From contig JBDIWC010000004.1 in the NCBI GenBank assembly GCA_039794085.1, positions 1-64,000 on the forward strand: a DNA stretch of 64,000 nucleotides, in the 5' to 3' direction. A program made the position numbers and the translations under genes. This DNA comes from Gemmatimonadales bacterium. Its GTDB lineage: Bacteria; Gemmatimonadota; Gemmatimonadetes; Gemmatimonadales; GWC2-71-9. The notes beneath the pieces are model-generated. The model saw only the letters and a program-made list of their open reading frames with translations, did not search any database and had not been told where the DNA came from. Each line of letters begins with the position of its first letter. Positions within the stretch are counted from its first letter, which is position 1. Positions 13,243 through 29,820 of this stretch are shown in pieces.

Positions 13243-13631
13243 GTCGCACCCCCGAAAGTGCGCGGCATCTCATCGGGGGATCCCCCAAGTCGACGGACCG
13301 CAGTATGCCTTTCCCTTGCGCGAGAGGTCCTCGAGAACTGTCATGGGAGTGAAACCTTGTCGCCCGGCCTCTCGTAGACTACTGGCACAGTTGGCCTTCA
13401 GGCGGTAGACTCTGGGATCCGCCCCCTGTGCCGGCGGCAGTTTCTCCACCACACGCGTCTTTTCCGGTCCGTCCACACGGAGCTTCAGGCATGATGCAAA
13501 CCCGTCCCATTCACCCCGCCCCAACACCCAGCACCTCTACACCACCCACACCAGGTATCGGGTTTCGGGCCTTGGGTATCGGGTCCCCCGCCCCCAACAC
13601 CCGGATCCCAACACCCGATAGCCCTTTCCCC

Positions 13632-16600
13632 ATGCTGGCCGGACTGGCACTCCTGGCGGCCGTCCTCGGGGCGATCCCCGGTCCACTCCAGGCCCAAGGT
13701 TCTTCGGCGGGGCAGAAGCCGGGACTCCCGCTGGAGGCGTCACAGACGGCCCGATTCACGGCCACCAGGGGTACCTGGATGTCGGTGGATGTGAGCCCCG
13801 ATGGCCAGACCCTGGTTTTTGATCTGCTGGGAGACCTCTACCGGATGCCGATCACCGGAGGGACGGCCACGCGCCTGACCCAGGGGCTCGCCTACGACGC
13901 GCAACCCCGCTTCAGTCCCGATGGGTCCCGGATTGTTTTCCTCTCCGACCGGACCGGAGGCGAGAATCTCTTCACCATCGCCACGGACGGCTCCGACCTC
14001 CGCCAGGTGACTCCACCCGGCAACCAGCTCGGCTACACCTCACCCGAATGGACCCCCGACGGGAAGTACATCGTCGCCTCCCGCTCGGGTTCGGGCTTCG
14101 GGGTCAAGAAACTCTGGCTCTTCGACACCGAGGGCGGAACCGGGGTTCCTCTCGGCTCCCAGGCGGGACCGCAGGGACTGTACGGTGCGGCCTTCGGACC
14201 CGATGGACGCTTCGTGTATTACGCCTGGCGGATCGGGCTCTGGCAGTACAATGCCTCGATGCCGCAGTTCCAGGTGGGGGTCTACGACCGGGAGACGGGG
14301 AACACCACCACCATCACCTCCCGCTACGGATCCGCGTTCCGGCCCGCCATCTCTCCGGACGGGAAGTGGCTTTCCTACGGTTCCCGTGAGAACACCGAAA
14401 CCGGACTCCGCCTCCGGGACCTGGCGAGCGGCGAGGAACGGTGGCTTGCCTATCCGGTTCAACGGGACAACCAGGAATCGGTCCCCGATCTCGATGTGCT
14501 TCCCGGCTACTCCTTCACCCCCGATTCTCGCGCCATCGTTCTCTCCTACGGGGGCGAGTTCTGGCGGGTCCCGGTGGATGGGACGGCCGCCACGAAGATC
14601 CCCTTCACGGTGAACGCCGAGGTGGCGGTGGGCCCGGTGGTGAAGTTCGAGTATCCGATCGAGGACGCCCCCACCTTCACGGTCCGGCAGATCCGGGAGC
14701 CGGTGGCGTCCCCCGATGGGCAGCAGGTCGCGTTCTCCGCGCTGGACCGACTCTACGTGGCGGACGGTGCCACCGGGACGCCGCGTCGCGTGACCACCGC
14801 GGACGTCGGAGAGTATGCGCCGACCTGGAGCCCGGACGGGCAGTCGCTCGCGTATGTGACCTGGGATGGAACCCGCGGCACCCTGTCGAGAGTGGACCTC
14901 GCCACGGGAACGGTGACGGAACTGGCCGGGGACGGTCTCTTCCTGAGTCCCGCATGGTCCCCCACCGGAGGGGGGGGGCGCATCGTCGTGACACGAGCCT
15001 CCGCCCGGGAGATGCGCGAGGCGGTGGATCCCTTCGTGTCGGGCTTTGGCGCGGAACTGGTCTGGGTTCCGGCCTCGGGCGGGCCGATGACGACAATCCG
15101 TCCGGCGGGGAACGTGTCCGCCCCTCACTTCACGGCGGATACCTCACGAATCTTTGCCTACGGCTTCATTCCTCCCCCGCCCGGGGCGCCCCCCGGATCG
15201 GCGGGACCTGCCCTGGTCTCCATGCGGTGGGACGGGACCGATCTCCGGCAGCATGTCCGCATGCTCGGTCCCCTTCCGCTCGGCGCCACCCCTCCGGAGG
15301 ACCCCAGCCGGGGCGACATCGTGATGCCCCCCACCGAGACGGATCAGGAGGTGAACCGGGGACTCTCCGCAGCCACGATCCGGATGGCCCCGCGAGGGGA
15401 CTTCGCCCTGGCCGAGATCGGCCGGGAGCTCTACCTGGCCCGCATCCCCCAGGTCGGGGGGGCGGTTCCGATCATCAACATGTCGACGCCCGACAGCGCC
15501 GGCACCCGGGCGATCCGGCTGAGCGACATCGGGGGTGAGTTCGCCTCCTGGAGCGCGGATGGGCGCACGGTCCACTGGGGGATCGGGAACGCGTTCGTCT
15601 CCTACGACGTGGCCCGTGGCCTGGCGGTGGACGACAGCCTTCGAAGGGCCGGGGCCGACTCGGCCACCCGGTGGAACAACGCCTACCGGCCCGCCGAGCA
15701 GCGGATTCTCGTGAGCGCTCCCCGGGACATTCCGGAGGGAACCGTGGTGCTGCGCGGGGCCCGCATCATCACCATGCGGGGAGAGGAGGTGGTGGAGAAC
15801 GGAGACGTGGTGGTCCGCAACAATCGGATCGTGAGCGTCGGGCCTCAGGGCACCGCGCCGGCCGGAGCCCGGGTGATCGATGTGCAAGGCAAGACCATCG
15901 TGCCGGGCTTCGTGGACACCCATGCCCACATGTGGCCCGGGTGGGGGATTCACTGGAAACAGCCCTGGATCTACCTCGCCAGCCTGGCCTGGGGGGTCAC
16001 CACCACGCGGGATCCCCAGACCTCGACCACCGATGTGCTCACCTATCAGGACCGGGTCGAGGCGGGCCAGGTCGTCGGTCCCCGGGTGTACAACACCGGC
16101 CCCGGCGTGTTCAGCGTGGACCGGGTGGGAACCCTGGAGCGGGCCCGGGACGTGCTCCGGCGCTACAGCACCTACTACGACACCAAGACGTTCAAGATGT
16201 ACATGGCGGGGAACCGGCAGACCCGGCAGTACCTCATCATGGCGGCGCGGGAACTGGAGCTCATGCCCACCACCGAGGGCGGACTCCAGTTCATGCTCAA
16301 CATGACGCACGCCATGGACGGGTACTCCGGGGTGGAACACACCATCCCTCTCGCGCCGATGTATGACGACGTGGTCCAGCTCTACAAGACCTCGGAAACC
16401 ACCAACACGCCGACTCTCCTCGTGTCCTACGGGGCACCCTGGGCGGAGAACTGGTTCTACACGACCGAAAATCCCACGGCCGATCCGAAGGTGCGTCACT
16501 TCATGCCCGCCGAGGAACTCGACCTCAAGGCCCGTCGCCGGAACTCGTTGGCAAGCCCCGGTCCCTCGGGATGGGTGCATGAGTCGGAGTATGGTTTCCG

Positions 16601-17006
16601 GCGGCATGCGGCCTTTTCCAAGGCGCTGGTCGAGGCCGGGGGCCGGGCGGGCATCGGAAGCCACGGGCAGTTCCAGGGTCTCGGCTATCACTGGGAGCTC
16701 TGGGCGGTGCAGAGCGGGGGAATGCGTCCCCACGACGCCCTCCGGGTGGCCACCCTGCTGGGCGCCGAGGCGCTCGGGCTCGGGCGGGATCTCGGCTCGG
16801 TCGAGGCCGGCAAGATCGCCGATCTGGTGATTCTCGATGCGAATCCGCTCGACGACATCCGCAACACCAACACTGTCCGCCATGTGATGAAGAACGGGCG
16901 GCTCTACGAGGGTGACACCATGAACGAGATCTGGCCCCGACAGCGCCCCGCGGGGGATCAACCGTGGCGCCACTTCGCCCCGACCAACACCACCGGCCAG
17001 CGGTGA
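13632..17006 (+). CDS. Secreted PD40/TolB beta-propeller + amidohydrolase domain protein (paralog 1)
   Basis: Signal peptide; repeated P.FSPDG; PGFVDTHAH; GKIADLVILD. Confidence 0.92.
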   Translation: MLAGLALLAAVLGAIPGPLQAQGSSAGQKPGLPLEASQTARFTATRGTWMSVDVSPDGQTLVFDLLGDLYRMPITGGTATRLTQGLAYDAQPRFSPDGSRIVFLSDRTGGENLFTIATDGSDLRQVTPPGNQLGYTSPEWTPDGKYIVASRSGSGFGVKKLWLFDTEGGTGVPLGSQAGPQGLYGAAFGPDGRFVYYAWRIGLWQYNASMPQFQVGVYDRETGNTTTITSRYGSAFRPAISPDGKWLSYGSRENTETGLRLRDLASGEERWLAYPVQRDNQESVPDLDVLPGYSFTPDSRAIVLSYGGEFWRVPVDGTAATKIPFTVNAEVAVGPVVKFEYPIEDAPTFTVRQIREPVASPDGQQVAFSALDRLYVADGATGTPRRVTTADVGEYAPTWSPDGQSLAYVTWDGTRGTLSRVDLATGTVTELAGDGLFLSPAWSPTGGGGRIVVTRASAREMREAVDPFVSGFGAELVWVPASGGPMTTIRPAGNVSAPHFTADTSRIFAYGFIPPPPGAPPGSAGPALVSMRWDGTDLRQHVRMLGPLPLGATPPEDPSRGDIVMPPTETDQEVNRGLSAATIRMAPRGDFALAEIGRELYLARIPQVGGAVPIINMSTPDSAGTRAIRLSDIGGEFASWSADGRTVHWGIGNAFVSYDVARGLAVDDSLRRAGADSATRWNNAYRPAEQRILVSAPRDIPEGTVVLRGARIITMRGEEVVENGDVVVRNNRIVSVGPQGTAPAGARVIDVQGKTIVPGFVDTHAHMWPGWGIHWKQPWIYLASLAWGVTTTRDPQTSTTDVLTYQDRVEAGQVVGPRVYNTGPGVFSVDRVGTLERARDVLRRYSTYYDTKTFKMYMAGNRQTRQYLIMAARELELMPTTEGGLQFMLNMTHAMDGYSGVEHTIPLAPMYDDVVQLYKTSETTNTPTLLVSYGAPWAENWFYTTENPTADPKVRHFMPAEELDLKARRRNSLASPGPSGWVHESEYGFRRHAAFSKALVEAGGRAGIGSHGQFQGLGYHWELWAVQSGGMRPHDALRVATLLGAEALGLGRDLGSVEAGKIADLVILDANPLDDIRNTNTVRHVMKNGRLYEGDTMNEIWPRQRPAGDQPWRHFAPTNTTGQR

Positions 17007-17014
17007 GGCGCACC

Positions 17015-20000
17015 ATGACAACCTCGACGACTCCCCTGCTTCGCCGGATTGCCGCGGTCACCCTGGTGAGCGCGACGGCCCTTGCCCTTCCGCTCGCCGC
17101 CCAGGGACCGCGTCCCGGTGCGGGTGGCCCCGGTGGGCCACCACCCAAACCGCTCCCGCTGGAAGCGAAGCGATCCGCTACCTTCACCGCCACCGAGGGA
17201 ACCTGGATCTCCCTCGATGTGAGCCCCGATGGCCAGACCATCGTGTTCGACCTCCTCGGGGATCTCTACACCATGCCCATCACGGGAGGCACCGCGACGG
17301 CCCTGACCTCGGGCCTCGCCTTCGACGCCCAGCCCCGGTTCAGCCCCGATGGGAAGCGGCTGGTCTTCGTGTCGGACCGGAGCGGTGGCGACAACGTGTG
17401 GTTGATGGACCTGGAGACCAAGGACACCACCCAGCTCACCCAGGGAAACAACGCCCTCTACGTGTCGCCCGAGTGGACACCCGATGGACAGTACATCGTG
17501 GTGAGCCGGGCCACCGGGTCGTTCGGGACCGCCAAGCTCCATCTCTACCACGTGGACGGAGGGTCGGGCCTCCCGCTGATTCGCCAGCCGGCCAACGCCA
17601 AGACGATCGGCGCCTCCGTCACGCCCGACGGGCGGTACATCTGGCATGCCCGCCGGAACGGAGACTGGAACTACAACGCTCTCTTCCCGCAATATCAACT
17701 GGCGGTGTATGACCGGGAAACGGGGGAAACCCGCGGCATGGCGGGTCGCTACGGCTCCTCGTTCCGTCCGGCCATCTCTCCCGACGGGAAGTGGCTCGTC
17801 TACGGGACCCGGCACGAAACCGGGACCGGGCTTCGGGTGCGGGACCTGGCCACCGGCGACGAAGAGTGGCTCGCCTGGCCCGTCCAGCGGGATGACATCG
17901 AGTCCCGCGGCACTCTCGACGTGCTTCCCGGTTACGCCTTCACCCCCGACTCCCGGGCGGTCATCACCTCGTACGGAGGAGGGATCTGGCGAGTGCCGCT
18001 CGACAAGTCCGCCCCGGTGCGCATTCCCTTCTCCGCCGAGGTGAAGACCGCGGTGGGACCCGAAGTGAAGTTCGCCTGGCGGGTGGACACCGCCGCCACC
18101 CTCACCGCCCGGCAGATCCGGAATCCCGTGGTGTCGCCCGATGGGAAACGCGTGGCGTTCACCGCCGTGGACCGGCTCTATGTTCAGGACCTTCCGGAGG
18201 GAACCCCTCGCCGGGTCACGACCGCCGATGCGGGGGAATACCAGCCGGTCTGGTCCCCCGACGGATCCTCCCTCGCCTGGATCAACTGGCGGGACGGCAG
18301 CGGCGGACACCTCATGCGCGCCACCTTCGATGCCCGCGGCACGCCCCGTCCGGTGCAGGTGAGTCGCGTGGCGGCTCTCTACTCCAATCCCGCGTTTGCG
18401 CCGGACGGGAACCGGATCGTGGTGACCCGGGCCCCGGCCCGCGATCTCCTCGAGGCCTCCGGGAACGGGGGCGGAACCTTCGGGGGGGATTTCGTCTGGT
18501 TCCCCGCGGCCGGCGGTGATGCCACACTGATCGCCCCGACCGCGGGCCGGGACGTCGCGCACTTCGTGCTCAGCGAGCCCGATCGGATCTACGCATCGAG
18601 TCCCTTCCGGGGTCTGGTCTCGTTCCGGTGGGACGGGACCGACGAGCGTCAGGTGGTGCGCGTCGTGGGAGCCATGCCTTTCGGATTCGGCCAGTTCGAT
18701 CCGGAGGAGGAGATGGTCTTCCTGCCCCGCCGGATCGCCCCGGTGCGGGCCGACGCTCTCTACACCCGCGTCTCCCGGGAAAACCTGGAACCGGTGCCGC
18801 AGCCGACACCGGCCGGGGTGATTATGATGTCCCCCGCCGGCGGCCAGGCCCTGGCCCAGGTCAACACCGATCTCTATGTGGTGACTGTTCCGGTGACCGG
18901 AGGACCGGTGCCCACGATCAACGTGGCCGGAGGGAGTGCCGTGCCGGTGCGGAAACTGACCGACATCGGTGGGGAGTTCCCCGCCTGGTGGGGACCCGAG
19001 GGCCAGCACGCCACCTTCGCCCTCGGCAACACCCTCTTTCAGTATGACCTCGCCCGTGCCAAGACGGTGGACGACAGCCTGAAGGCGGCGGCCAAGGCCA
19101 AGGCGGACACCGCCCGTGTCAAACAGGCCACCAACGACACGATCAAGACCCTGAAGGCCCGGGCCGACAGCCTCATCAAGGCAAAGCAGCCGGTGCCCGA
19201 TTCGATCAAGATCCGGATCTTCGATCTCGAGGCGCGGCTCGTTTCCGATTCCATCGCCGCCGCCAACGCCGCCAAGGCCCGTGCCGACAGCGTCAAGGCC
19301 AAGGCAGACACGAGCAAGGCGAAGGCGGACACCACGAAGAAGCCCGCCACCCCCGACAAGCCGGGGTACAAGCCGGTCGAGCGGAAGATCACCGTGACCC
19401 TCCCCCGGGACATTCCGAAGGGAACGGTGGTGCTGCGGGGCGGGCGCGCCATCACCATGAAGGGCCACGAAATAATCGAGAACGCGGACGTGGTCGTACG
19501 GGACAACCGGATCATGGCCGTGGGAGCCCGAGGAGCAGTAACGGTCCCCGGAGGGGCGCGCATCATCGATGTGACCGGGAAGACCATCATGCCGGGGATG
19601 ATCGATGTGCACTATCACGCTCAGTGGCTCATCCCGGAGGTCCACCCGGGCCAGACCTGGCAGTATCTGACCACGCTGGCCTATGGCGTCACCACAACGC
19701 GGGATCCGCAGACCCAGTCCACCGATGTCCTGAGCTACCAGGATCGGGTGGAGACCGACGGCATGCTCGGTCCCCGGATCTACTCCACCGGCCCCGGCGT
19801 CGGGCTTCCCAACAATGAGGGGGTGCGCGATCTGGATCACGCGAAGAACATGCTGAAACGCTACAGCGAGTTCTGGGACACCAAGACCCTCAAGATGTAC
19901 ATGAGCGGCAACCGCCAGCAGCGGCAGTGGATCATCATGGCGGCCAAGGACCTCGGCATCATGCCCACCACCGAGGGGGGCCTCGACTTCCGGCTCGACC

Positions 20001-20734
20001 TGACCCACGCCATGGACGGATATCCCGGTGTGGAGCACTCCCTGCCGATCACCCCGATTTTCGGTGATGTGGTGGAGCTCTTCAAGGCGAGCCAGACCAC
20101 CCACACGCCGACCCTGCTCGTCTCCTACGGGGGGCCGTTCGGGGAGAACTACTACTACACCCATGAGAACGTCCTCGGAGATCCCAAGCTCAATCGTTTC
20201 ATGCCAAAGGGCCAGATCGATGCCCGGGCCCGCCGCAGGGGGAGCGAACCTGCTGTGTTCAACCCCAACGGCTACCGCCAGGGAGGCTGGTTCCTGGATG
20301 AGGAGTATGTGTTCACGAAGCACGCGGAGTTCGTGAAGAAGATGATCGAGGGTGGCGCCCGCTCGGCGCTTGGCGCCCACGGCCAGATTCAGGGGATCGG
20401 GAATCACTGGGAGCTCTGGTCCATGGCCTCGGGGGGGCTGTCCAATCACGATGCCCTGCGCACCGCCACCATCTACGGTGCCGAGGCGATCGGTTTCGGA
20501 CAGGATCTGGGCAGCCTGGAGCCGGGAAAGCTCGCGGACATCCTGGTCCTCGATGACGATCCGCTCGTGAACATCCGGAACACCAACAGCATCCGGTATG
20601 TGATGAAGAATGGCCGCCTCTACGAAGGGGCGACGTTGAACGAGGTCTGGCCGCGCCAGCGGGCGATGTCGGCCCAGTGGTGGGCCGAGGCGGCGGAGGG
20701 TCCCAAGGTGGCTGCGGGCCTCGGGATGCCCTGA
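17015..20734 (+). CDS. Secreted PD40/TolB beta-propeller + amidohydrolase domain protein (paralog 2)
   Basis: Colinear with paralog 1; PGMIDVHYH; GKLADILVLD. Confidence 0.92.
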   Translation: MTTSTTPLLRRIAAVTLVSATALALPLAAQGPRPGAGGPGGPPPKPLPLEAKRSATFTATEGTWISLDVSPDGQTIVFDLLGDLYTMPITGGTATALTSGLAFDAQPRFSPDGKRLVFVSDRSGGDNVWLMDLETKDTTQLTQGNNALYVSPEWTPDGQYIVVSRATGSFGTAKLHLYHVDGGSGLPLIRQPANAKTIGASVTPDGRYIWHARRNGDWNYNALFPQYQLAVYDRETGETRGMAGRYGSSFRPAISPDGKWLVYGTRHETGTGLRVRDLATGDEEWLAWPVQRDDIESRGTLDVLPGYAFTPDSRAVITSYGGGIWRVPLDKSAPVRIPFSAEVKTAVGPEVKFAWRVDTAATLTARQIRNPVVSPDGKRVAFTAVDRLYVQDLPEGTPRRVTTADAGEYQPVWSPDGSSLAWINWRDGSGGHLMRATFDARGTPRPVQVSRVAALYSNPAFAPDGNRIVVTRAPARDLLEASGNGGGTFGGDFVWFPAAGGDATLIAPTAGRDVAHFVLSEPDRIYASSPFRGLVSFRWDGTDERQVVRVVGAMPFGFGQFDPEEEMVFLPRRIAPVRADALYTRVSRENLEPVPQPTPAGVIMMSPAGGQALAQVNTDLYVVTVPVTGGPVPTINVAGGSAVPVRKLTDIGGEFPAWWGPEGQHATFALGNTLFQYDLARAKTVDDSLKAAAKAKADTARVKQATNDTIKTLKARADSLIKAKQPVPDSIKIRIFDLEARLVSDSIAAANAAKARADSVKAKADTSKAKADTTKKPATPDKPGYKPVERKITVTLPRDIPKGTVVLRGGRAITMKGHEIIENADVVVRDNRIMAVGARGAVTVPGGARIIDVTGKTIMPGMIDVHYHAQWLIPEVHPGQTWQYLTTLAYGVTTTRDPQTQSTDVLSYQDRVETDGMLGPRIYSTGPGVGLPNNEGVRDLDHAKNMLKRYSEFWDTKTLKMYMSGNRQQRQWIIMAAKDLGIMPTTEGGLDFRLDLTHAMDGYPGVEHSLPITPIFGDVVELFKASQTTHTPTLLVSYGGPFGENYYYTHENVLGDPKLNRFMPKGQIDARARRRGSEPAVFNPNGYRQGGWFLDEEYVFTKHAEFVKKMIEGGARSALGAHGQIQGIGNHWELWSMASGGLSNHDALRTATIYGAEAIGFGQDLGSLEPGKLADILVLDDDPLVNIRNTNSIRYVMKNGRLYEGATLNEVWPRQRAMSAQWWAEAAEGPKVAAGLGMP

Positions 20735-20736
20735 GG

Positions 20737-20850
20737 GAAGTTTGAAGTTCGAAGTTCGAAGTTCGAAGTTTGAAGGCGGAAGGGAGGAGAAGGCGGAAAG
20801 GAAACCGGGGTCGGCCGGGTTATCGGAGCGTCACCCCGGCGAACGCCGGG
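20737..20850. repeat. GAAGTT(C/T) heptamer array plus palindrome ACCCCGGCG-AA-CGCCGGGGT
   Basis: Reverse complement of the array at 207-238; short perfect inverted repeat at about 20833-20852. Confidence 0.8.
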
Positions 20851-20932
20851 GTCCAGCACTCAGACATCCGGCGACCTTCCTGACGCTCTTCAGTGTGTGC
20901 GCTCCTCTCACCACTCCCGTCTCCAAGGAACG

Positions 20933-22606
20933 ATGACTGACAACCGACGTTTCCCCTTCGCGCTGCTGGTCGGGACCTTCCTCTTCCTTGCCTGCGGGCC
21001 CGCGGGGCCGGCCCCCGACCTCATCGTCCTGGGGCGGGTCTGGACCGGTGACCGCACCGCTCCCTGGGCGCAGGGTGTTGCCATCCGGGGCGACCGCATC
21101 CTCGCCTTGGGGGATCGCGACACCATCCTGGCGATGGCGACCTCCGGGACCGTCACCCTCGACAACGGGACCAACCTCGTCACGCCCGGCCTCCAGGACG
21201 GCCACACTCACCTGTTCGGGGGCGGCTTCCAACTTCAATCCGTTGACTTGCGGGACGCCTCCTCCCCGGAGGAGTTTATCCGAAGGATCGCGGCCTTCGC
21301 CACCACCGTCGGCGAGGGCGTCTGGATCCAGGGTGGCACCTGGGACCACGAGCGCTGGCCCGGGGCCACGCTTCCCGCCGCGGCATGGATCGATTCGGTG
21401 ACGGGGAACACGCCCGTCTTCGTGAGTCGCCTCGACGGCCACATGGCACTCGCCAACTCGGCGGCGATGCGGTTGGCCGGGGTGACGTCCGCCACGCCCA
21501 CTCCTCCCGGTGGCGAGATCGTCCGTGACCGAAACGGGAATCCCACCGGAGTGTTCAAGGACGCCGCGATGGATCTCGTCGCGTCGGCGATTCCGTCGCC
21601 GAACGCCGAGCAGCTCGACAGTGCCTTGGCCGGGGCGATGCGGCACGCCGCGTCGCTGGGAGTGACCGCGGTATCGCATGTTTCCGCGTCCTGGGAGGAG
21701 GTCGCCGCCCTCCGGCGGGCCCGGGACCAGGGGCGGCTCACGCTGCGGGTGACGGTCTATACCCCGCTCGCGGGCTGGCGAGAGGCGGCGGAATCACTCC
21801 GGGTGTCGGGGCCTGGTGACGAGTGGCTCCGCGTCGCCGGGGTCAAGGGGTTTGTGGACGGATCCCTCGGGTCCACCACCGCCCTGTTCGAGGATCCCTA
21901 CACCGACGCCCGGGGAACGTCGGGGCTGTTCGTGACCCCCGAGGATTCCCTCCGGCGCTGGATCGCGGCGGCGGATTCCGCGGGGCTGCAGGTGGCTGTG
22001 CACGCCATTGGCGATCGTGCCAACGCGATTCTCCTCGACGTCTACGATAGCGTGGCTCGCGCCCACGGGCCCCGGGACCGCCGGTTCCGGATCGAGCATG
22101 CCCAGCATCTGCGCCCGGTGGACATCGAACGGATGGCCCGATTCGGCGTGCTGGCCTCGATGCAGCCCTATCATGCCATTGATGATGGGCGCTGGGCGGA
22201 AAAGAGGATCGGCCGGGACCGGATCCGCACCACCTACGCCTTCCGCTCGTTGCTCGACGCGGGGGCCGAGCTGGCGTTCGGCTCGGACTGGCCCGTGGCA
22301 CCCCTCCGGCCGGCCGAAGGGCTCTACGCGGCGGTGACGCGCCGCACCCTGGATGGCTGGAATCCCGAGGGATGGGTCCCGGCGGAGCGGATCACGCTGG
22401 AAGAGGCGTTGCGGGCGTACACGGCGGCCAATGCCCGGGCCACCTTTCACGAGGAGGATCTGGGTGTCCTCCGAGTAGGGGCCCTGGCAGATCTGGTGTT
22501 GTTCGACCGGGATCTCTTCCAGGTTCCGCCCGGTCAGATCCGCGAGGCGGCTGTGAAGAACACTGTGGTGGGGGGGGGACCGGTGCAGAGGATCCCCCCC
22601 GGGTGA
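20933..22606 (+). CDS. Amidohydrolase_3 (YtcJ-like) lipoprotein
   Basis: Lipobox FLAC; PGLQDGHTH, VDGSLGS, HAIGD, RIEHAQ, FGSDWPV. Confidence 0.92.
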   Translation: MTDNRRFPFALLVGTFLFLACGPAGPAPDLIVLGRVWTGDRTAPWAQGVAIRGDRILALGDRDTILAMATSGTVTLDNGTNLVTPGLQDGHTHLFGGGFQLQSVDLRDASSPEEFIRRIAAFATTVGEGVWIQGGTWDHERWPGATLPAAAWIDSVTGNTPVFVSRLDGHMALANSAAMRLAGVTSATPTPPGGEIVRDRNGNPTGVFKDAAMDLVASAIPSPNAEQLDSALAGAMRHAASLGVTAVSHVSASWEEVAALRRARDQGRLTLRVTVYTPLAGWREAAESLRVSGPGDEWLRVAGVKGFVDGSLGSTTALFEDPYTDARGTSGLFVTPEDSLRRWIAAADSAGLQVAVHAIGDRANAILLDVYDSVARAHGPRDRRFRIEHAQHLRPVDIERMARFGVLASMQPYHAIDDGRWAEKRIGRDRIRTTYAFRSLLDAGAELAFGSDWPVAPLRPAEGLYAAVTRRTLDGWNPEGWVPAERITLEEALRAYTAANARATFHEEDLGVLRVGALADLVLFDRDLFQVPPGQIREAAVKNTVVGGGPVQRIPPG

Positions 22607-22745: not shown

Positions 22746-22804
22746 AATCAAATGGTTGACCATTATCACATCCACCTCGCGAGGCGGTCGGGCCACGGGT
22801 TGCA
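22746..22804 (+). promoter_or_regulatory. IHF site plus candidate sigma54 promoter for the lasso cluster
   Basis: AATCAAATGGTTG matches WATCAANNNNTTR (22746-22758); GG-N10-GC with TTGCA at 22790-22804, but the -24 box is imperfect. Confidence 0.55.
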
Positions 22805-22904
22805 AGTGGCTGGTTTCTTGCCGTATGATTATTGTTCGGTGATGTTGCGATATCGCCGAAAGGGCATCGAGCCCTTGGGATCCCTTTTCGCTTTGGAGGT
22901 GTAT

Positions 22905-23027
22905 ATGGCCAGCCACAAGACACCGTGGACCCGCCCGGTTCTCGTCACCAAGCCCGTGCAGGAGACTCTGCAGGGACTTGGAAGCAACCTCGACGCTATC
23001 GGCGGCGAATTTCCGGTGCAGAGCTAA
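22905..23027 (+). CDS. Lasso peptide precursor (A), 40 aa: MASHKTPWTRPVLVTKPVQETL-QGLGSNLDAIGGEFPVQS
   Basis: GGAGGT RBS at 22895; leader WxxPxL; Thr at -2; acceptor Asp; C-terminal Ser; directly upstream of the lasso maturation genes. Confidence 0.9.
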   Translation: MASHKTPWTRPVLVTKPVQETLQGLGSNLDAIGGEFPVQS

Positions 23028-23049
23028 GCACCCAGCTCGAATCGGAAAT

Positions 23050-23090
23050 CGATGCCCCCCGGGAATTGCAGCCTGGGGGGCATCGGCTTT
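23050..23090 (+). terminator. GC-rich stem-loop after the precursor (attenuator or mRNA stabiliser)
   Basis: CGATGCCCCCCGGG...CCTGGGGGGCATCG followed by GCTTT. Confidence 0.7.
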
Positions 23091-23122
23091 CCTGGCCTGC
23101 GTTGACATCGGAGTGGGCAAAG

Positions 23123-24088
23123 ATGGCGCTCGATGAGATCCTCCTTTCGACACCCCTGCAGTACCTCATCTATGGCCTACGCGTCGAAAGCGACATTGAC
23201 CTCCCCGGATGGCCCCACGCCGCCGGAGGAGGACCTGCCGACCTGACCATCCGCCATCGGTCCCTCCCTATGGACCGATCGCCAGGGGCCCCCTACACCG
23301 CCCAGGGAGCACTCAAGAACGACCGAGTCGACCTCTACATCCGCGGGGTCGGGGCCTACCGGGCAGCCGACGGAACCCGCATTGATGTCGACCCCGACCC
23401 TTCGGCGTCCCCGGAGGATGTCCTCCTCTACCTCACGGGTGCGATGCTCGGGGTCATCCTCCACCTTCGTGGAGCCTTTCCCCTTCACGCCAGCTGCGTC
23501 ACCCTGGGACCGGGTGGAGGCGGCATCGCGTTTGCCGGCCCTTCAGGGGCGGGAAAATCGACCCTTGTCAGTGCCTTCCTGGATCGTGGGGGGGTGCTGG
23601 TGACGGACGACGTGGCGGTATTATTCCAGACCGAAGAAGGACATACCCATGCCTGGCCCGGCGCTCGTCGGGTAAAGCTCGACGACGGCTCCCTGGAGGT
23701 CCTGAAGCGTCCGAAGGGCGAAGGGCGGGGACTCGAACGGGCGGGGGGGAATCGGGGGAAATTCCATGTGACGGTCGAGGGTGCCCTTCTGCCGCCGACC
23801 CCCGTGGCCAAGGTATACATCCTGCATGAGGAGGAGGGACTGGTCCGCACGGAGAACCTGAGCGGGGTAGACGCCGTCGCGGCCCTGGTGGAGCACACGT
23901 ACCTTTTGGCCTACGCCTCTGGCCTCGGTCGGGGGCGGCAATGCTTCCGACTGGCTGCGGAGGTGGCTCGCACGGTCCCTGTCGCCCGCCTCATTCGACC
24001 GAGGGGGTTCCAGCATCTCGAACCGGTGCTCGACCTCCTCGAGCAGGAGGCCCGAACGGCCCAGGATACCACAAGGGGGGATGCATGA
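23123..24088 (+). CDS. HPr-kinase-like lasso precursor kinase (PadeK-like)
   Basis: LHASCV, Walker A GPSGAGKST, TDD; N-terminal YGLRVESD; cluster context. Confidence 0.87.
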   Translation: MALDEILLSTPLQYLIYGLRVESDIDLPGWPHAAGGGPADLTIRHRSLPMDRSPGAPYTAQGALKNDRVDLYIRGVGAYRAADGTRIDVDPDPSASPEDVLLYLTGAMLGVILHLRGAFPLHASCVTLGPGGGGIAFAGPSGAGKSTLVSAFLDRGGVLVTDDVAVLFQTEEGHTHAWPGARRVKLDDGSLEVLKRPKGEGRGLERAGGNRGKFHVTVEGALLPPTPVAKVYILHEEEGLVRTENLSGVDAVAALVEHTYLLAYASGLGRGRQCFRLAAEVARTVPVARLIRPRGFQHLEPVLDLLEQEARTAQDTTRGDA

Positions 24089-24375
24089 CACCCGGCAATC
24101 TGATTGGTCCCGACACCCGGCTCGCACGGAGCGACGAACCGGTGGCGGTCGAGGTCGACCGCACCGTCGTGATGATGAGCGTGGAGCAGGGGAAGTATTT
24201 CGGCCTCGAAGGGCCGGGAGGCCGCATCTGGGCCTTGTTGGAGCAACCGCGAACGCCGCGTGAACTGCGGGACACCCTCCTGGACGAATTTGCGGTTGAC
24301 CCCGACCGCTGTCTTCAGGACGTCTGCGATTTTCTGGAGGAGCTCCGCAGCGCCGGCCTGGTTCACGTTCCATGA
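24085..24375 (+). CDS. PqqD-family RiPP recognition element (lasso B1)
   Basis: VMMSVEQGKYFGL, RIWALLEQP, EFAVDPDRCLQDV pattern. Confidence 0.92.
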   Translation: MTPGNLIGPDTRLARSDEPVAVEVDRTVVMMSVEQGKYFGLEGPGGRIWALLEQPRTPRELRDTLLDEFAVDPDRCLQDVCDFLEELRSAGLVHVP

Positions 24376-24800
24376 ACCTGCTGGCCCGGGCCGGGCGCCT
24401 CTCGGTCGCGGAAATGCGGTTGCTCACCGAGGCCATCTTCGGTCTGGTGGTGAGCGGGGTGCTCATCCGGTTCTGGCGATTCCGCGTCCTCGCGGCGCAC
24501 CTGGGGCGACACATGGCCGAGAGTCCGATCGACCAGGATCGGGCGCAACTCGCGGTCGCCCAGAGCATCCGGTGGGCGATACACGCGACGGCGCGGCGAC
24601 TTCCCTGGCATCCCGTCTGTCTCCCCCAGGCCCTGACTGCGCAGTGGATGCTCCGGCGCCGTGGCATCACCTCGACGCTGTACCTTGGCGTGGACCCCGG
24701 CTCCCGATACGACGCCCACGCCTGGGTTCGGGCCGGCGCCCTGATCGTCACCGGCGGACCGCGCCGGCCGGAGTTCGTGGTTGTCTCCACCTTTGCATGA
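24372..24800 (+). CDS. Lasso leader peptidase B2 (transglutaminase-like)
   Basis: CLPQAL catalytic Cys, LYLGV, AHAWV catalytic His. Confidence 0.93.
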   Translation: MNLLARAGRLSVAEMRLLTEAIFGLVVSGVLIRFWRFRVLAAHLGRHMAESPIDQDRAQLAVAQSIRWAIHATARRLPWHPVCLPQALTAQWMLRRRGITSTLYLGVDPGSRYDAHAWVRAGALIVTGGPRRPEFVVVSTFA

Positions 24801-24842
24801 TGGCGACGCCATGAGTCTCGCCGCCGAGAAACGCGTCACGCG

Positions 24843-26789
24843 ATGAGCACCATTGCCGGACTCTACCAATGGGACGGTGGCCCCGCGTCGCGATCTCGCC
24901 TCGCGCCGATGCTGGATACCCTCGCGGCCTGTGGTGGGGAAGCCCGGTGCTGGGCCCCTGAAACGGAATCCCACCCGGTGGCCCTGGGATGCCGCCCCCT
25001 GCGAATCACCGCGGAGGATGAGAACTACCATCCTCCGCTCCGCTCTCCGGATGGCCAGCTGGTGCTCGTGGCGGACGCCCGGATCGACAATCGAGTCGAC
25101 CTGGGCCATCGGCTCGGAATCTCCGCAGCGGAGGCCGGAACGTTGTCGGATCCCGGGTTCATTCTGGCGGCGTATGAGGCGTGGGGCCGTGACTGTGTCC
25201 GTCACCTTCTCGGTGACTTCGTGTTCCTGCTCTGGGATGGACAGCGCCGGACCCTCTTTGGTGCGCGAGACGGGTTGGGGCAGCGGGTGCTGTTCTTCCA
25301 CCGGAGCCCTTCCCGCGTGGCCTTTGCCAGCACCCCTGCCGCGCTACTCGCCTTGGACGACGTCCCGGCCCGCCTGAACCGGCGCAAGGTCGCCATGGCT
25401 CTGGTTCTCCTCCAGGATCCCGGGACAACCTATTTCGAGGGGATCGAGCGGCTGCTCCCGGGACACACCCTGGAAGCGGGTCCGTCCGGGATCCATATCG
25501 CTCCGTTCTGGACACCGGTCCCAACCCGCGAGATCCGGTTCGCGTCGGATAGCGAGTATGTCGAGGCCTTTCTGGGTGTGTTCGACTCGGCCGTTCGGGC
25601 CCGGACCCGTGGCACGGGCGGGATCGGTGTCCTCCTGAGCGGGGGGATCGATTCCACCGCGGTCGCGGCCACTGCGGCCCTGACGATGGAGGGGCGGCCG
25701 CTCCACGCGTTTCATGCGGCTCCCGCTCTCAACTTCGACGGTCGAATCGGGCGGGGGATGGTGGCCGACGAATCCGCCGATGTGGTGGCGATTGCCGAGC
25801 ACCATCCCACCATTGACCTCCGGATCGATCGCGCCTCCTACCTCAAGGAGCTGTGGGAGGTCGATTCCCTGTACGGAGCCGTGGGGTCGCCGGTTCGCAA
25901 TCCAAGCAACTGGGGCTGGTACCAGGGACAATACGCCGCGGCTCGCGCAGTGGGTGTGCGCGTGATGCTGAATGGAAGCATGGGGAACGCGACCATCAGC
26001 CACCTGGGAACGAGGTCCCTTCGCGATCTCGCGCGGCGGGGTGCCTGGGCGACACTCTGGCGAGAGATGCACTCCGTGGCGGCTGCCACGGGGGCCGGTC
26101 GGTGGTCGGTGCTTCGGGATCAGGTTCTCCTGCCCCTCATTCCGCTGCCCGTGGAGCGCCTGTACCGTCGGTGGCGTGGTCTCCGGACCCTCTCGCTCCT
26201 GGATCAGTCCGCCTCGGCGCTCCGCCGGGACCAGGTGGCGGCCTTTGCCCTGGAGGACGTGGCCCGGACCATGGGCCGCGGCGCGGATCAGCTTCGGCGG
26301 TGCCGAGGTCTGGATCTCCGGTTAGCGACCCTCGCCGGGACTGGGGAGACGTTTGATGCCCTCAACGGCCTGCGCGCCTGGCATGGGATTGAAACGCGCG
26401 ATCCCACGGCCGACACCCGGGTCGTGGAGTTCTGCCTGGCGATCCCCGAAACGCAGTACCATCGTGGCGGGGAGAAGCGCTGGTTGATCCGTCGTGCCAT
26501 GCGAGGCCGGGTTCCCGACCAGGTCCTCGACCGGAAGGAGTTCGGTGGCCAGGGGGCCGACTGGATGGACTGGATGCACTTCCTGCGACCGGATGCGGCC
26601 AGGGAACTCGACAACATGGACCGGTCGGAGACGGCCCGGGACCTCCTCGATCTTCCGCGGCTGCGCACCCTCCTCGATCGGTGGCCGGAGCGATTCGGCC
26701 CCGAGCACGAGGTGGACTACAAGCTGCGCTTTCTTCGGGGAATCATGATGGGTCGCTTCCTCCTCTGGTTTGAAAGGACCCACGGGTGA
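24843..26789 (+). CDS. Lasso cyclase C (asparagine synthetase-like)
   Basis: ARIDNR, ARDGLG, LSGGIDS; begins MSTIAG, lacking the N-terminal Cys of glutaminase-active AsnB. Confidence 0.9.
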   Translation: MSTIAGLYQWDGGPASRSRLAPMLDTLAACGGEARCWAPETESHPVALGCRPLRITAEDENYHPPLRSPDGQLVLVADARIDNRVDLGHRLGISAAEAGTLSDPGFILAAYEAWGRDCVRHLLGDFVFLLWDGQRRTLFGARDGLGQRVLFFHRSPSRVAFASTPAALLALDDVPARLNRRKVAMALVLLQDPGTTYFEGIERLLPGHTLEAGPSGIHIAPFWTPVPTREIRFASDSEYVEAFLGVFDSAVRARTRGTGGIGVLLSGGIDSTAVAATAALTMEGRPLHAFHAAPALNFDGRIGRGMVADESADVVAIAEHHPTIDLRIDRASYLKELWEVDSLYGAVGSPVRNPSNWGWYQGQYAAARAVGVRVMLNGSMGNATISHLGTRSLRDLARRGAWATLWREMHSVAAATGAGRWSVLRDQVLLPLIPLPVERLYRRWRGLRTLSLLDQSASALRRDQVAAFALEDVARTMGRGADQLRRCRGLDLRLATLAGTGETFDALNGLRAWHGIETRDPTADTRVVEFCLAIPETQYHRGGEKRWLIRRAMRGRVPDQVLDRKEFGGQGADWMDWMHFLRPDAARELDNMDRSETARDLLDLPRLRTLLDRWPERFGPEHEVDYKLRFLRGIMMGRFLLWFERTHG

Positions 26790-28600
26790 GGGCGCCGAGT
26801 CGGACGGAGAGCCCGTGGCTGTTTGACCTGGGGCCGCTGCGGCATGGCCTTGCTCTGGTCTGGCGGAGCGCACCGGGGTGGTCTCTGGTGCAGGGAAGTC
26901 TCCTGGTGGTGCAGGGGATCCTCCCCCTCGCATCACTCTACCTCATCAAGCTGATCGTCGACACGGTCAGCGCCGCCGTGACCACGGGCAACAGCGATCC
27001 GGGCCGATTGACCCTTCTCGTCCTGCTGGGGGGCGGGGTCGCCGCGCTGTCGGCGGGACTGGGGGCCCTCAGTACCATGGTGGGAGAAGTACAGTCGCTC
27101 CGTCTTGCCGACGCGGTGCTGGACGTGATGCACGCTCAATCGGTGTCGATCGACCTCGAGCGATACGAAAGTGCGGAGTATCACGACACGCTCCATCGCA
27201 CCCAGGAGCGAGCCCCGTACCGCCCTGCGCGCATCGTGCAGGAAGTGTCTCAGATCGCGCGGGGGGGGCTCTCCCTCGTCGGCATCCTGGGCCTCCTGCT
27301 CGCGTTTCATTGGCTCCTCGTGGTGGTCTTGCTGGTGGCGGCGATTCCCGGACTGGTGATCAAGACGGTCCACTCCCGTCGCCACCATGCCTGGGCCCAG
27401 ACCCGCACGGCCGTCCACCGGCTGGCACAGTACCTCAGCTCGCTGATGACCAGCGCGGCATTCGCCAAGGAGATCCGGCTGTTCGACCTCGGCGGGCCTC
27501 TTCGCCAACGGTTTCGGGTCATCCGGGAAGCGGTCATCAGGGATCGGATCCATCTGGTGCGCCGGCGCGCGATCGCAGACCTGGGGGCGCAGGTCGTGGC
27601 CGTGGCCGCGGTCTTTGGTTCCCTGCTGGTGGTGGCGCGGTGGGCCGCGTCTGGAGCCTTGTCGGTGGGGGACATGGTGATGTACTTCGGGGCTTTTCAG
27701 CGGGCGCAGGATTACTTCAAGGACATGCTGTCAGGGGTGGCCGGATTGTATGAGGACAACCTCTTCCTGGCGGACTTCCAGGAGTTCGCCTCGCTCCGCC
27801 CCAGGGTCGTGGATCCCCCCGTGCCGCGAGCCTTCCCCCATCCTCTGACGGAGGGCATCTCCTGCGACGGGCTGACCTTCCGGTATCCGGGGACCGATCG
27901 GGATGTGCTGACTGACATCACCTTCGACATCCGTCCGGGGGAGCACGTGGCACTGGTCGGAGAAAACGGGTCCGGCAAGACCACTCTCGTCAAGCTTCTC
28001 TGCCGGTTGTACGATCCGACGCGTGGTGAAATTCGGATCGGAGGGGTCGATCTTCGGACCTTTCGTCTCACGGATCTCCGCCGGGAGCTGGCCGTCGTGT
28101 ACCAGGACTATGCGCGCTATCAACTCTCGGTGCGCGACAATATCTGGATGGGCAATGTGGACCTCTCCCCGGACAGCCCCCGGATCACCGAGGCGGCGCG
28201 CCGCACCGGAGCGGACACCGCGATCGCACGGCTCCCGCACGGGTACGACACGATTCTGGGTCGCCAATTCGTGGACGGAGCGGAGTTGAGCCTCGGGGAA
28301 TGGCAGAAGATTGCCCTCGCTCGCGCCTTCGTGCGCGACGCCCAGATTATCATCCTGGATGAACCGACCGCAGCGCTCGATCCTCGCTCCGAGGCCGAGG
28401 TCTTTGAGCAGTTCACCGCTCTGGCGGCCGGGAGAACCACCCTCGTGATCAGCCACCGGCTCGCCACGGTCCGGAACGCCGACCGCATATTCGTGATGGC
28501 AGAGGGTCGCCTCGTCGAATCAGGCCCCCATGATGCCCTCATGGCCCAGGAGGGCATCTACGCACATTTCTTCGAGACCCAGGCGAGGTCCTACCGGTGA
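26786..28600 (+). CDS. ABC exporter, fused permease/ATPase (lasso D)
   Basis: TM domain; GENGSGKT, LSLGEWQ, LDEPT, SHRL. Confidence 0.93.
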   Translation: MRAPSRTESPWLFDLGPLRHGLALVWRSAPGWSLVQGSLLVVQGILPLASLYLIKLIVDTVSAAVTTGNSDPGRLTLLVLLGGGVAALSAGLGALSTMVGEVQSLRLADAVLDVMHAQSVSIDLERYESAEYHDTLHRTQERAPYRPARIVQEVSQIARGGLSLVGILGLLLAFHWLLVVVLLVAAIPGLVIKTVHSRRHHAWAQTRTAVHRLAQYLSSLMTSAAFAKEIRLFDLGGPLRQRFRVIREAVIRDRIHLVRRRAIADLGAQVVAVAAVFGSLLVVARWAASGALSVGDMVMYFGAFQRAQDYFKDMLSGVAGLYEDNLFLADFQEFASLRPRVVDPPVPRAFPHPLTEGISCDGLTFRYPGTDRDVLTDITFDIRPGEHVALVGENGSGKTTLVKLLCRLYDPTRGEIRIGGVDLRTFRLTDLRRELAVVYQDYARYQLSVRDNIWMGNVDLSPDSPRITEAARRTGADTAIARLPHGYDTILGRQFVDGAELSLGEWQKIALARAFVRDAQIIILDEPTAALDPRSEAEVFEQFTALAAGRTTLVISHRLATVRNADRIFVMAEGRLVESGPHDALMAQEGIYAHFFETQARSYR

Positions 28601-29820
28601 GCGAACCCGGGGGTCGCCTGCTCGCCCTCCTGCGGGGAAAGGGCCGTGATCTTGGATGCCCCTCCGAGGACGAGTGGCCTCTCCTCCTCGGTCAGGCGGC
28701 CCAGTGGCAGTGCGGAGCACTGACTTACCGGACGCTGGAGGACGCCCGGTGCCTCGAGCTTGCTCCCGCAGGCGTACGCGACCGGCTGCGATCGGCCTAT
28801 GTGCAGGCCGCCACCCGGAACGCGCTCCTCTTCCGGGATGTCGCCCGTGCGGCCGCGATGCTCGCGCGCGCCGACATTCCCCTGATGCTTCTCAAGGGGG
28901 TACACCTTGCCCGGTTCGTCTATCCCGAACCGGCCCTGCGAAGCATGGCAGATCTGGATCTGATGGTCCCGCGGGACCGGCTCGTCGAGGCGGAGAACCT
29001 CTTTCTGGGGGCCGGGTGTGGACCGACCCCGCGTCCCGATCCCGTCGAGTTCTGTACCCGCTCCAATCATCTCGCGAAGCTGTCCGCCCCGGGCGGAACG
29101 GTGGTCGAGCTGCACTGGACCATCGAGCGGCCCACGAGCCCGTTTGCCATCGATCTGGACGGCCTGTGGGCGCGAGCCGACATCGTCCGGTTCGAGAAGC
29201 AACGGGTTCGGGTGCTCTCCCCGGAAGACCTGGTGTTGCACCTGGTGCTTCACACGTCCTTTCACCACGGGTTCGATCGCTCGGCGATCAAGGCCCTGGT
29301 GGACCTTCGCCATGTGATCGACCTCCATCGCGACACGCTCGACTGGAACACCCTGGTCACCCGCGCGAATGCCTGGGGAGCCGGTGGAGTCACCTACGTG
29401 ACCCTGCAACTCGCCACCTCCCTCATGGGTGCACCGGTTCCAGCCGCAGCCCTGGGGACACTGGAGCACTCCCCCGACGATGAGGTGGCGATGGAGGCGG
29501 CCCGGGAGTTCGTCCTGCGGCCACCGACCCTGCCGAAGGTGTTCGTGGAAGTCGCCCGACGCACGGGATCGGACCGGTGGAGGTGGATCTTCCATCGGAT
29601 CTTCCCCCCGCCGATGACCATGGCGAGGCTCCACGGCCTGAGGTTAGGCTCTCCGTGGGTGTACCCACTCTACCTGATTCGCCTCGCTGGCCTTCTGGTG
29701 GGGCGGGGGCTCCTGCTGCTGAGAGCGATGCTTCCCGGGGCCGCCCGCAAGGAAACCCTCGAAAGAGAGGTGAACCGGCAGCGCATCGAGGAGTGGATCA
29801 AGGCCCAGGGCGGCTCCTGA
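28597..29820 (+). CDS. Nucleotidyltransferase family protein (NTP_transf_5-like; lasso tailoring candidate)
   Basis: LLKG, RSMADLDLMV, VELHW motifs; GTGA overlap with the ABC gene. Confidence 0.88.
   Translation: MSEPGGRLLALLRGKGRDLGCPSEDEWPLLLGQAAQWQCGALTYRTLEDARCLELAPAGVRDRLRSAYVQAATRNALLFRDVARAAAMLARADIPLMLLKGVHLARFVYPEPALRSMADLDLMVPRDRLVEAENLFLGAGCGPTPRPDPVEFCTRSNHLAKLSAPGGTVVELHWTIERPTSPFAIDLDGLWARADIVRFEKQRVRVLSPEDLVLHLVLHTSFHHGFDRSAIKALVDLRHVIDLHRDTLDWNTLVTRANAWGAGGVTYVTLQLATSLMGAPVPAAALGTLEHSPDDEVAMEAAREFVLRPPTLPKVFVEVARRTGSDRWRWIFHRIFPPPMTMARLHGLRLGSPWVYPLYLIRLAGLLVGRGLLLLRAMLPGAARKETLEREVNRQRIEEWIKAQGGS

Follow-up and report, generated by a model that had tools for sequence, protein, structure and literature searches.

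Gene Content of the Locus

This analysis concerns a lasso peptide gene cluster in a stretch of 64,000 nucleotides from a Gemmatimonadales bacterium (assembly GCA_039794085.1, contig JBDIWC010000004.1, positions 1 to 64,000, forward strand), referred to below as the window. Seven open reading frames (ORFs), all on the + strand and in the order A-K-B1-B2-C-D-N, occupy positions 22905-29820. Adjacent frames overlap by 4 nt at four of the six junctions (K/B1, B1/B2, C/D and D/N), and the other two are gaps of 95 nt (A-K) and 42 nt (B2-C). An earlier note, made from the letters alone, had described a co-directional seven-gene run with mostly overlapping stop and start codons, which is what lies here. 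A longer, TTG-started kinase frame (22832, 418 amino acids, aa) was not adopted, since it runs into the precursor gene and the start of the sister kinase corresponds to 23123.

22905-23027, + strand: precursor A, 40 aa
22905-22970, + strand: predicted precursor leader, 22 aa, with a W(-15)xxP(-12)xL(-10) motif for the RiPP recognition element (RRE; RiPPs are peptides made on the ribosome and modified after translation), and Thr(-2)
22971-23027, + strand: predicted precursor core, 18 aa, and stop; Gln1, Gly2, Gly4, Asp8 as ring acceptor, Ser18 as likely kinase target
23123-24088, + strand: K, HPr-kinase-like peptide kinase, 321 aa; motif residues H122, G139, G142, G144, K145, S146, D162, D163
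24085-24375, + strand: B1, stand-alone RRE, 96 aa; PF05402, best match in the Protein Data Bank (PDB) TbiB1
24372-24800, + strand: B2, leader peptidase, 142 aa; above the NF033537 cut-off
24843-26789, + strand: C, lasso cyclase, 648 aa; Ser replaces the N-terminal Cys of AsnB, SGGIDS at 266
26786-28600, + strand: D, ABC exporter with membrane and ATPase parts, 604 aa (Pfam, NCBIfam)
28597-29820, + strand: N, NTP_transf_5 protein, 407 aa; D119-x-D121, predicted Pol-beta-like nucleotidyltransferase fold

Above the Pfam cut-offs, B1 matches PqqD (66.9 bits), B2 Transglut_core3 (85.9 bits), C Asn_synthase (117.8 bits) and GATase_7, D ABC_tran (113.4 bits) and ABC_membrane, and N NTP_transf_5 (PF14907, 186.6 bits). 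The earlier note had proposed PqqD, Transglut_core3, Asn_synthase and NTP_transf_5 as a check, and all four are thus matched. B2 also exceeds the lasso B2 model NF033537 (93.1 bits against a cut-off of 33); two of its catalytic residues were located, Cys83 and His116, and both are invariant in 16 of 16 sequences. For B1, the sequence match to TbiB1 has an E value of 6e-14. The combination of an RRE with a transglutaminase-like cysteine peptidase that marks lasso clusters is present in PF05402, PF13471 and NF033537. The cluster is not a chance grouping, because the same gene order recurs in other Gemmatimonadales and because the B2 and N genes each occur once in their own genome. Purifying selection acts across all seven genes, with ratios of nonsynonymous to synonymous divergence (dN/dS) of 0.12-0.24 against L018, the same cluster in a sister species.

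The Lasso Cyclase

In C, the Ser that takes the place of the AsnB catalytic Cys stands at residue 2, and the ATP motif SGGIDS is retained. The best-scoring model is that of lasso cyclases, NF033535, at a score below its cut-off. A PDB sequence search with C returned no lasso cyclase among its matches. In a cyclase tree of 32 rows, a branch with an SH-aLRT support of 100 sets the six Cys-bearing AsnB-type rows apart from the rest. None of these six has B1 or B2 in its locus, and each of the 26 Cys-less rows has one or the other nearby. The window cyclase falls within an 11-row clade (support 100) of B1/B2-linked cyclases, and outside that clade the nearest row belongs to a paeninodin-family cluster of Paenibacillus (support 87, not starred). 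The earlier note had accepted that a cyclase grouping with AsnB would speak against a lasso cluster; the window cyclase lies outside the Cys-bearing rows. Its identification of the locus as a lasso cluster stands, on the family models, on a cyclase lacking the AsnB Cys, and on the precursor, RRE and B2 alongside.

The Precursor and Its Core

In full numbering the precursor landmarks are W8, P11, L13, T21 and D30, the last being core Asp8. They supply the elements by which a lasso precursor is recognized, namely a [Y/W]xxPx[hydrophobic] leader, Thr(-2) and Asp or Glu at core positions 7-9. The precursor matches no Pfam or NCBIfam model, including the paeninodin model NF033524, which as a control scored the precursor of the Paenibacillus locus L079 at 46.3 bits against a cut-off of 27. 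The precursor family is new and has no NCBIfam model. The earlier note nevertheless claims more novelty than there is, since the seven-gene set has already been described for the psm and bsf clusters.

Forty distinct precursor homologues, 10 from the loci and 11 and 19 from two profile searches, were anchored on the leader Trp. The second search gave 22 matches, of which 19 were used: P0027 and P0031, both long and repetitive, were left out before the tally, and P0011 entered it a single time. Thr(-2) and the C-terminal Ser occur in 40 of 40 homologues, Gly2 and Asp8 in 37 each, and Gly4 in 36. Core residue 1 is Gln in 14, Gly in 9, Ser in 8, Ala in 4, His in 2, and Asn, Arg and Thr in one each; the usual lasso first residues Gly, Ser and Ala thus account for 21/40. 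At core position 5, Ser occurs in 16/40 and Ser or Thr in 23/40, and at position 3 Ser or Thr occurs in 5/40. A check with less bias used precursors beside kinase matches, collected by a pattern not requiring Ser: all 7 in L059-L065 have a terminal Ser, as do all 11 from metagenome loci (14 of 80 loci examined), of which 10 have Asp8. Two subfamily clusters, L088 and L097, have two tandem precursor genes.

The L079 paeninodin-family precursor has the identical W-15/P-12/T-2 spacing ahead of its Ala, and Ala1 is the proven core start in that family (PMC6993621). For this reason, Gln23 is the most likely first core residue and Asp30 the most likely ring-closing one. The sequence would then most likely give an 8-residue Gln1-Asp8 ring followed by a tail of 10 residues. 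Among natural lasso peptides already characterised, none with Gln1 was found in the searched literature, to which the supplements of the paeninodin and RODEO work may add Gln1 cores; one literature candidate was discarded, as its "Gln1" meant Gln13/Gln15. A Gln1 start would not in itself be a large surprise, because PalC cyclises every residue except Pro at position 1 (PMC13632552, partial text), and Pro is reportedly the sole residue unseen at that position in a large precursor survey.

The Kinase and the Nucleotidyltransferase-Fold Protein

His122, Lys145, Ser146, Asp162 and Asp163 are invariant in 10/10 subfamily kinases and in 22/22 wider kinases, so that K has the His, P-loop Lys-Ser and Asp-Asp of the HPr type. 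The same lasso-kinase motif is described for BsfK (PMC10368454, partial text). A PDB sequence search found no close relative of K (best E 0.1). Phosphorylation is likely of the paeninodin type, on Ser18, rather than at a Ser3 site as in BsfK and LppK, because the C-terminal Ser is invariant and ring position 5 is variable. According to the available part of a review, the paeninodin-type kinase acts on the linear precursor.

In N, D119-x-D121 is invariant in 26 of 26 homologues, an alignment that does not include PsmN itself. An NTP_transf_5 protein with a metal-binding DxD, the mark of pseudomycoidin-type clusters, is consequently present, and the kinase and PsmN-like nucleotidyltransferase of the earlier note are borne out by the intact kinase motifs, the NTP_transf_5 score above cut-off and the conserved C-terminal Ser of the precursor. 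The predicted structure of N (predicted local distance difference test, pLDDT, 93) matches MenT1 (Z 12.5), ANT(2'') 4xje (Z 11.0, root-mean-square deviation 3.5, 167 aligned), LnuA (10.2) and the phosphotransferase FKRP (7.2). ANT(2'') is also the template named for PsmN, whose D134/D136 are required for the addition of +162/+324 Da to phospho-Ser in E. coli (PMC6993621). No glycosyltransferase fold appears among the listed structural matches of N, and the activity is still possible. By analogy with PsmN, there is an even chance that N hexosylates phospho-Ser18, and its step is the least certain part of the pathway.

Proposed Biosynthesis

The intact seven-gene cluster would, with a fair degree of confidence, direct the formation of an exported 18-residue Gln1-Asp8 lasso peptide that is phosphorylated on Ser18 and probably hexosylated. 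The genes, motifs, fold class and conservation are matters of observation, and the biosynthetic steps follow the paeninodin and pseudomycoidin precedents. B1 would bind the WxxPxL leader, and K would very likely phosphorylate Ser40 of the linear precursor. Cleavage between Leu22 and Gln23 would fall to B2, a step that is likely on the same precedents. C would then activate Asp8 with ATP and close the 8-residue macrolactam on the Gln1 amine, and formation of a ring is to be expected with high confidence. N may or may not, with equal probability, attach one or two hexoses to the phosphate, and D would export the product. A surface or signalling role rather than an antibiotic one is weakly suggested, because no antibacterial activity was seen for paeninodin or pseudomycoidin (PMC6993621).

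Several points weigh against this proposal. All features of the product are predictions. The score of K for Hpr_kinase_C is weak (19.7 bits against the Pfam cut-off of 33.3), and its identity consequently rests on its motifs. The best NCBIfam model for B1, lasso_PqqD_Bac, is matched below its cut-off (69.1 against 80), as is NF033535 by C (335 bits against 525). The cyclase tree came from a quick search without bootstrap, with many rows chosen via kinase matches; the Cys-bearing rows had only ~1.5 kb of flank for B-gene detection, and neither the cyclase tree nor the kinase tree contains a characterised enzyme. Of the 40 precursors, 30 came from profile searches that included the scored positions, and many are close kin and not independent. 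The related kinases BsfK (PMC10368454, partial text) and LppK (PMC13381572, partial text) modify the internal Ser3. Purified wild-type pseudomycoidin was unthreaded, so that threading is not guaranteed (PMC6993621). As regards N, the predicted fold is of the nucleotidyltransferase and not of the glycosyltransferase kind, and neither the 25 other long ORFs of the window nor 36 neighbours of related clusters yielded a glycosyltransferase. In vitro activity of PsmN is not on record in the available text of PMC11912497, and the N homologue LppN was inactive in B. subtilis, a heterologous host (PMC13381572, partial text).

Alternative Readings

C has matches to the models of AsnB and of exopolysaccharide (EPS) amidotransferases (E 1e-48 to 1e-38), from which it could be taken for an ordinary asparagine synthetase or an amidotransferase of polysaccharide synthesis, and the locus for something other than a RiPP cluster. 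This is highly improbable, as these scores stay below the respective cut-offs (TIGR01536, 165 against 267 bits; TIGR03108, 131 against 817 bits) and the lasso model scores twice as high, C has no catalytic Cys and a tree position apart from AsnB, the precursor, RRE and B2 are adjacent and co-conserved, and polysaccharide genes were not found in the window. N-terminal Gln readily cyclises, and this supports a different alternative, in which the Gln1 members yield a linear pyroglutamate, or the ring unthreads, so that the product is linear or branched and not a lasso. A glutaminyl cyclase gene is present in the genome (G000:C39:19775-20455, locus L086; PF05096, 314 bits), the tail has few bulky residues, and cyclase-less sister clusters exist. 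Such an outcome is nevertheless unlikely, since the Gln1 members conserve both the cyclase and Asp8, the glutaminyl cyclase looks exported (its N-terminus, judged by eye, is basic and then hydrophobic), and PalC cyclised all position-1 residues except Pro. The same possibility bears on the loss of 18 Da suggested as a readout in the earlier note, which is usable but needs high resolution, because the linear pyroglutamate (-17.03) lies only 0.98 Da from the lasso (-18.01). The register itself could also be shifted: cleavage one residue later would release a peptide of 17 residues that lacks Gln1 and has its ring between Gly1 and Asp7. Gly occupies that position in 37/40 homologues and is the commonest lasso first residue in the literature, and a -2 residue other than Thr, Ile, is proven for BsfA (PMC10368454, partial text). 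Against the later cut stand the invariance of Thr one place earlier, the variation of the would-be -2 residue (L30, Q3, M2, A2, R2, F1), a W/P/T spacing that is exactly that of the paeninodin-family precursor, and the finding that BsfA I(-2)L was barely cleaved (PMC10368454, partial text), which together make it improbable.

The kinase could modify a ring Ser or Thr at position 5, which 23/40 homologues possess, with BsfK and LppK, which act on Ser3, as precedent. However, 17/40 lack a hydroxyl at that position and 5/40 lack any within residues 1-8, all 40 end in Ser, and BsfA ends in Asp (PMC10368454, partial text); ring phosphorylation is consequently quite improbable, and Ser18 is retained as the site. 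It is a serious possibility, though short of an even one, that N does not glycosylate, instead adding a nucleotide or else a phospho-sugar, or depending on a partner in the host, with the pseudomycoidin hexose deriving in part from E. coli enzymes. The predicted Pol-beta-like fold, with nucleotidyltransferases as the best structural matches, favours this, as does the inactivity of LppN noted above, and both the psm authors (PMC6993621) and a review, available in part, leave a host glycosyltransferase possible. Hexosylation by N is upheld by the sole measured outcome in the family, namely the +162/+324 Da that depend on the PsmN DxD (PMC6993621).

Putative Expression Signals and a Probably Recombined Block

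22800-22829, + strand: promoter-like site, a weak sigma70-like match upstream of the precursor
23044-23092, + strand: RNA hairpin 3' of the precursor stop, likely attenuator or stabiliser
22976-26417, no strand: block diverged from L018, comprising the core ring codons, K, B1, B2 and most of C

The hairpin (z -3.66) was equalled by none of 200 shuffles. Ten loci retain it; 92% of cells are paired, 6 of 11 pairs carry changes on both sides, and its conservation lies above all 500 shuffles and all slid controls, although kinship among the sequences inflates controls of this kind. The term terminator is not applied to it, because a simple terminator scan gave nothing that passed. From its position, the hairpin would likely shift the balance from enzyme mRNA towards precursor mRNA and so provide an excess of the latter. 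The sigma70-like site agrees with the consensus at 9 of 12 positions (one found against 0.2 +/- 0.4 in shuffles) and is not evidence of function. The upstream regions of the 10 loci share no clear common motif except a ribosome-binding site.

Within the block, 817 of 3442 bases differ from L018 (23.7%), against 515 of 8876 (5.8%) in the remainder. For K, B1, B2 and C, synonymous divergence (dS) lies at 0.61-1.06, whereas A, D, N and the flanks have values of 0.09-0.24. The left edge lies at or just ahead of the leader-core junction. Compared with the sister species, the core-to-cyclase block was likely exchanged by recombination. Positive selection was rejected as a cause, because dN and dS rise together. 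Nor is the assembly likely to be chimeric, as single contigs bridge both ends: contigs from run X1, possibly the source sample, span the two edges with 0 and 1 differences. One X5 contig, from another study, has the same near-far-near pattern of divergence.

Host and Distribution

The host is an uncultured Gemmatimonadales bacterium of the soil-and-water type. L018, also from Gemmatimonadales, has the same cluster and the same flanking genes, with flanks 94-98% identical to the window, in agreement with the Gemmatimonadota host suggested by the earlier note. At E 1e-15, 50 of 401 genomes of the order had a match to the window kinase, 10 of them, its own included, with at least 43% identity. 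Twenty regions were taken around kinase matches, and eight belong to the subfamily, seven with K-B1-B2-C-D-N and one, L061, without C and D; in L019 and L020 the gene order is that of the window. The precursor profile matched only 5 of 401 genomes of the phylum, and the subfamily is therefore rare and patchy. The lasso-type peptidase PF13471 is present in 204 of 401 genomes of the order, including one unpublished genome (G117), a count of B2 genes that is not one of whole clusters. Lasso biosynthetic gene clusters have been reported in 29 metagenome-assembled genomes of Gemmatimonadota (PMC11316326, partial text). The earlier note knew of no characterised lasso peptide in the phylum, and none was found for Gemmatimonadota in the searched literature (most subscription papers lie outside its coverage, and supplements of the paeninodin and RODEO work may contain clusters of the phylum). 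Other Gemmatimonadales lasso-type loci with a kinase and often N (L069-L078) differ in gene order, and the predicted cores of five candidate precursors among them start with varied residues.

A same-genus genome has an empty site (G002:C208 ~6660-6780, locus L084), where the flanking amidohydrolase and 2-oxoacid dehydrogenase E1 genes lie 119 nt apart, against ~7.4 kb in the window. Subfamily clusters in other genera have different neighbour genes. Terminal repeats marking an insertion were not found among 20 direct and 25 inverted repeats listed. Directly upstream of the cluster, at 13428-22606, the window holds three tandem amidohydrolase-family genes, two of them with PD40 propeller repeats, which are probably unrelated to it because they are present in G002 without the cluster. 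The intergenic sequence at ~20720-20870 is a dispersed small repeat; in the sister genome G001, its counterpart has matches at dozens of sites.

Sister Clusters without a Cyclase

Two loci, L061:5553-8737 (genome G201) and L091:7764-10913, contain only A-K-B1-B2-N, with B2 followed directly by N and no cyclase or exporter. Their precursors lack Asp8, having Glu8 followed by 3 and 5 residues, and keep the C-terminal Ser; P0026 is a third such precursor, seen as a sequence only. K, B1, B2 and N are intact in both loci (dN/dS 0.17-0.27 at dS 0.75-1.0). In G201, which is 97% complete, there is a single B2 gene and a subfamily cyclase is absent; the other three cyclase matches start with the AsnB Cys. 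Downstream of both loci, as of the complete cluster L059, lies a short-chain dehydrogenase gene, and L059 and L061 occupy the same genomic site in one genus.

The B2 tree places L061 and L091 as sisters (88); the K tree does not, and in the N tree a starred branch separates them. The three trees thus do not establish that the cyclase-less clusters arose only once, and since the two are sisters only in the B2 tree, selection after cyclase loss is not shown; decay of a recently broken cluster is possible. The LPPs offer a precedent for a kinase and N without a cyclase, with another peptidase and another site (PMC13381572, partial text). It remains a bolder and rather doubtful proposition that the family includes the first natural Gln1 lassos, that the modified phosphoserine tail is the active part, and that the sister clusters make linear phospho-glyco peptides independently of the Bacillota LPPs.

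A different RiPP-like cluster, without a B2 or cyclase match, lies at L022:2762-11266 in a record titled Burkholderiaceae. It encodes an RRE, a 60-aa YxxPxI peptide, two DUF455 ferritin-like proteins, an HPr kinase, a weak S24-like peptidase and a methyltransferase, ends with an ABC exporter (47% to D) and an N homologue, and resembles an LPP cluster with extra oxidative enzymes.

Relation to Known Systems

The closest functional parallel is the paeninodin/pseudomycoidin system, whose mode of operation the cluster appears to share although it fails the strict paeninodin test: the precursor misses NF033524, the predicted ring is Gln1-Asp8 (8 residues in an 18-aa core) instead of Ala1-Asp9, and the host is a member of Gemmatimonadales and not of Bacillota, to which paeninodins are said to be restricted (PMC13381572, partial text). 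With psm of Bacillus pseudomycoides (PMC6993621), from which the Ala1-Asp9 ring is known, it has in common the seven gene types, the C-terminal Ser of the precursor, the DxD of N and the kinase Asp-Asp; psmN, however, lies between B2 and D, whereas N here follows D. The His-Lys-Asp-Asp HPr-type kinase and split B1/B2 are also found in the paeninodin family (PadeK, ThcoK; PMC9266682, PMC8498205, partial texts), as is the Trp-type leader motif with the same spacing. The pade cluster, in the available text, has no N, and the proteins of the Paenibacillus paeninodin-family cluster have only 27-42% identity to those of the window.

The bsf cluster of Bradymonas sediminis (PMC10368454, partial text, for all statements on bsf here) has exactly A, B1, B2, C, D, K and N in a Gram-negative host, and shares the predicted Asp8 ring and the kinase motif. 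BsfA, unlike the window precursor, has Ile(-2), a Tyr leader at -17 and Gly1, and ends in Asp; it is phosphorylated on ring Ser3, and its mature product was not detected. Bsf-type lassos have Ile or Val(-2), conserved Ser/Thr3 and no C-terminal Ser, from which the present family departs in Thr(-2) (40/40), its C-terminal Ser and its rarity of Ser/Thr at position 3. LPP clusters (PMC13381572, partial text) combine an RRE, an HprK kinase and an NTP transferase without a cyclase, as L061 and L091 do, but with a SipW-like peptidase, a retained transporter, phosphorylated Ser3 and Bacillota hosts; L061 and L091 instead keep the lasso B2 and the C-terminal Ser and lack the transporter. The window cluster, with its cyclase and B2, is not of the LPP type. 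Palassoptides and PalC (PMC13632552, partial text) have an 8-residue ring and unusual first residues (Phe, Glu), and an engineered Gln1 variant was cyclised; unlike the window cluster, no kinase or N is described in that text, and the natural first residue is not Gln.

Implications

The expected chemistry is otherwise known, and the gene set is known from psm and bsf. Within the searched literature, the family would give the first characterised lasso peptide of Gemmatimonadota. Its cyclase clade has natural substrates starting with at least eight different residues and would be useful for engineering. What PsmN-type enzymes transfer, and whether to a linear or a knotted peptide, is stated as open (PMC11912497, PMC8498205, partial texts), and the psm work proposed N as a lock of the tail (PMC6993621). 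The compact clusters of this family lie outside polysaccharide loci, and the L059/L061 pair offers a natural comparison for the substrate question. If the cyclase-less sisters do make linear phospho-glyco peptides, PsmN-type enzymes would act on unknotted substrates and not merely lock a threaded tail.

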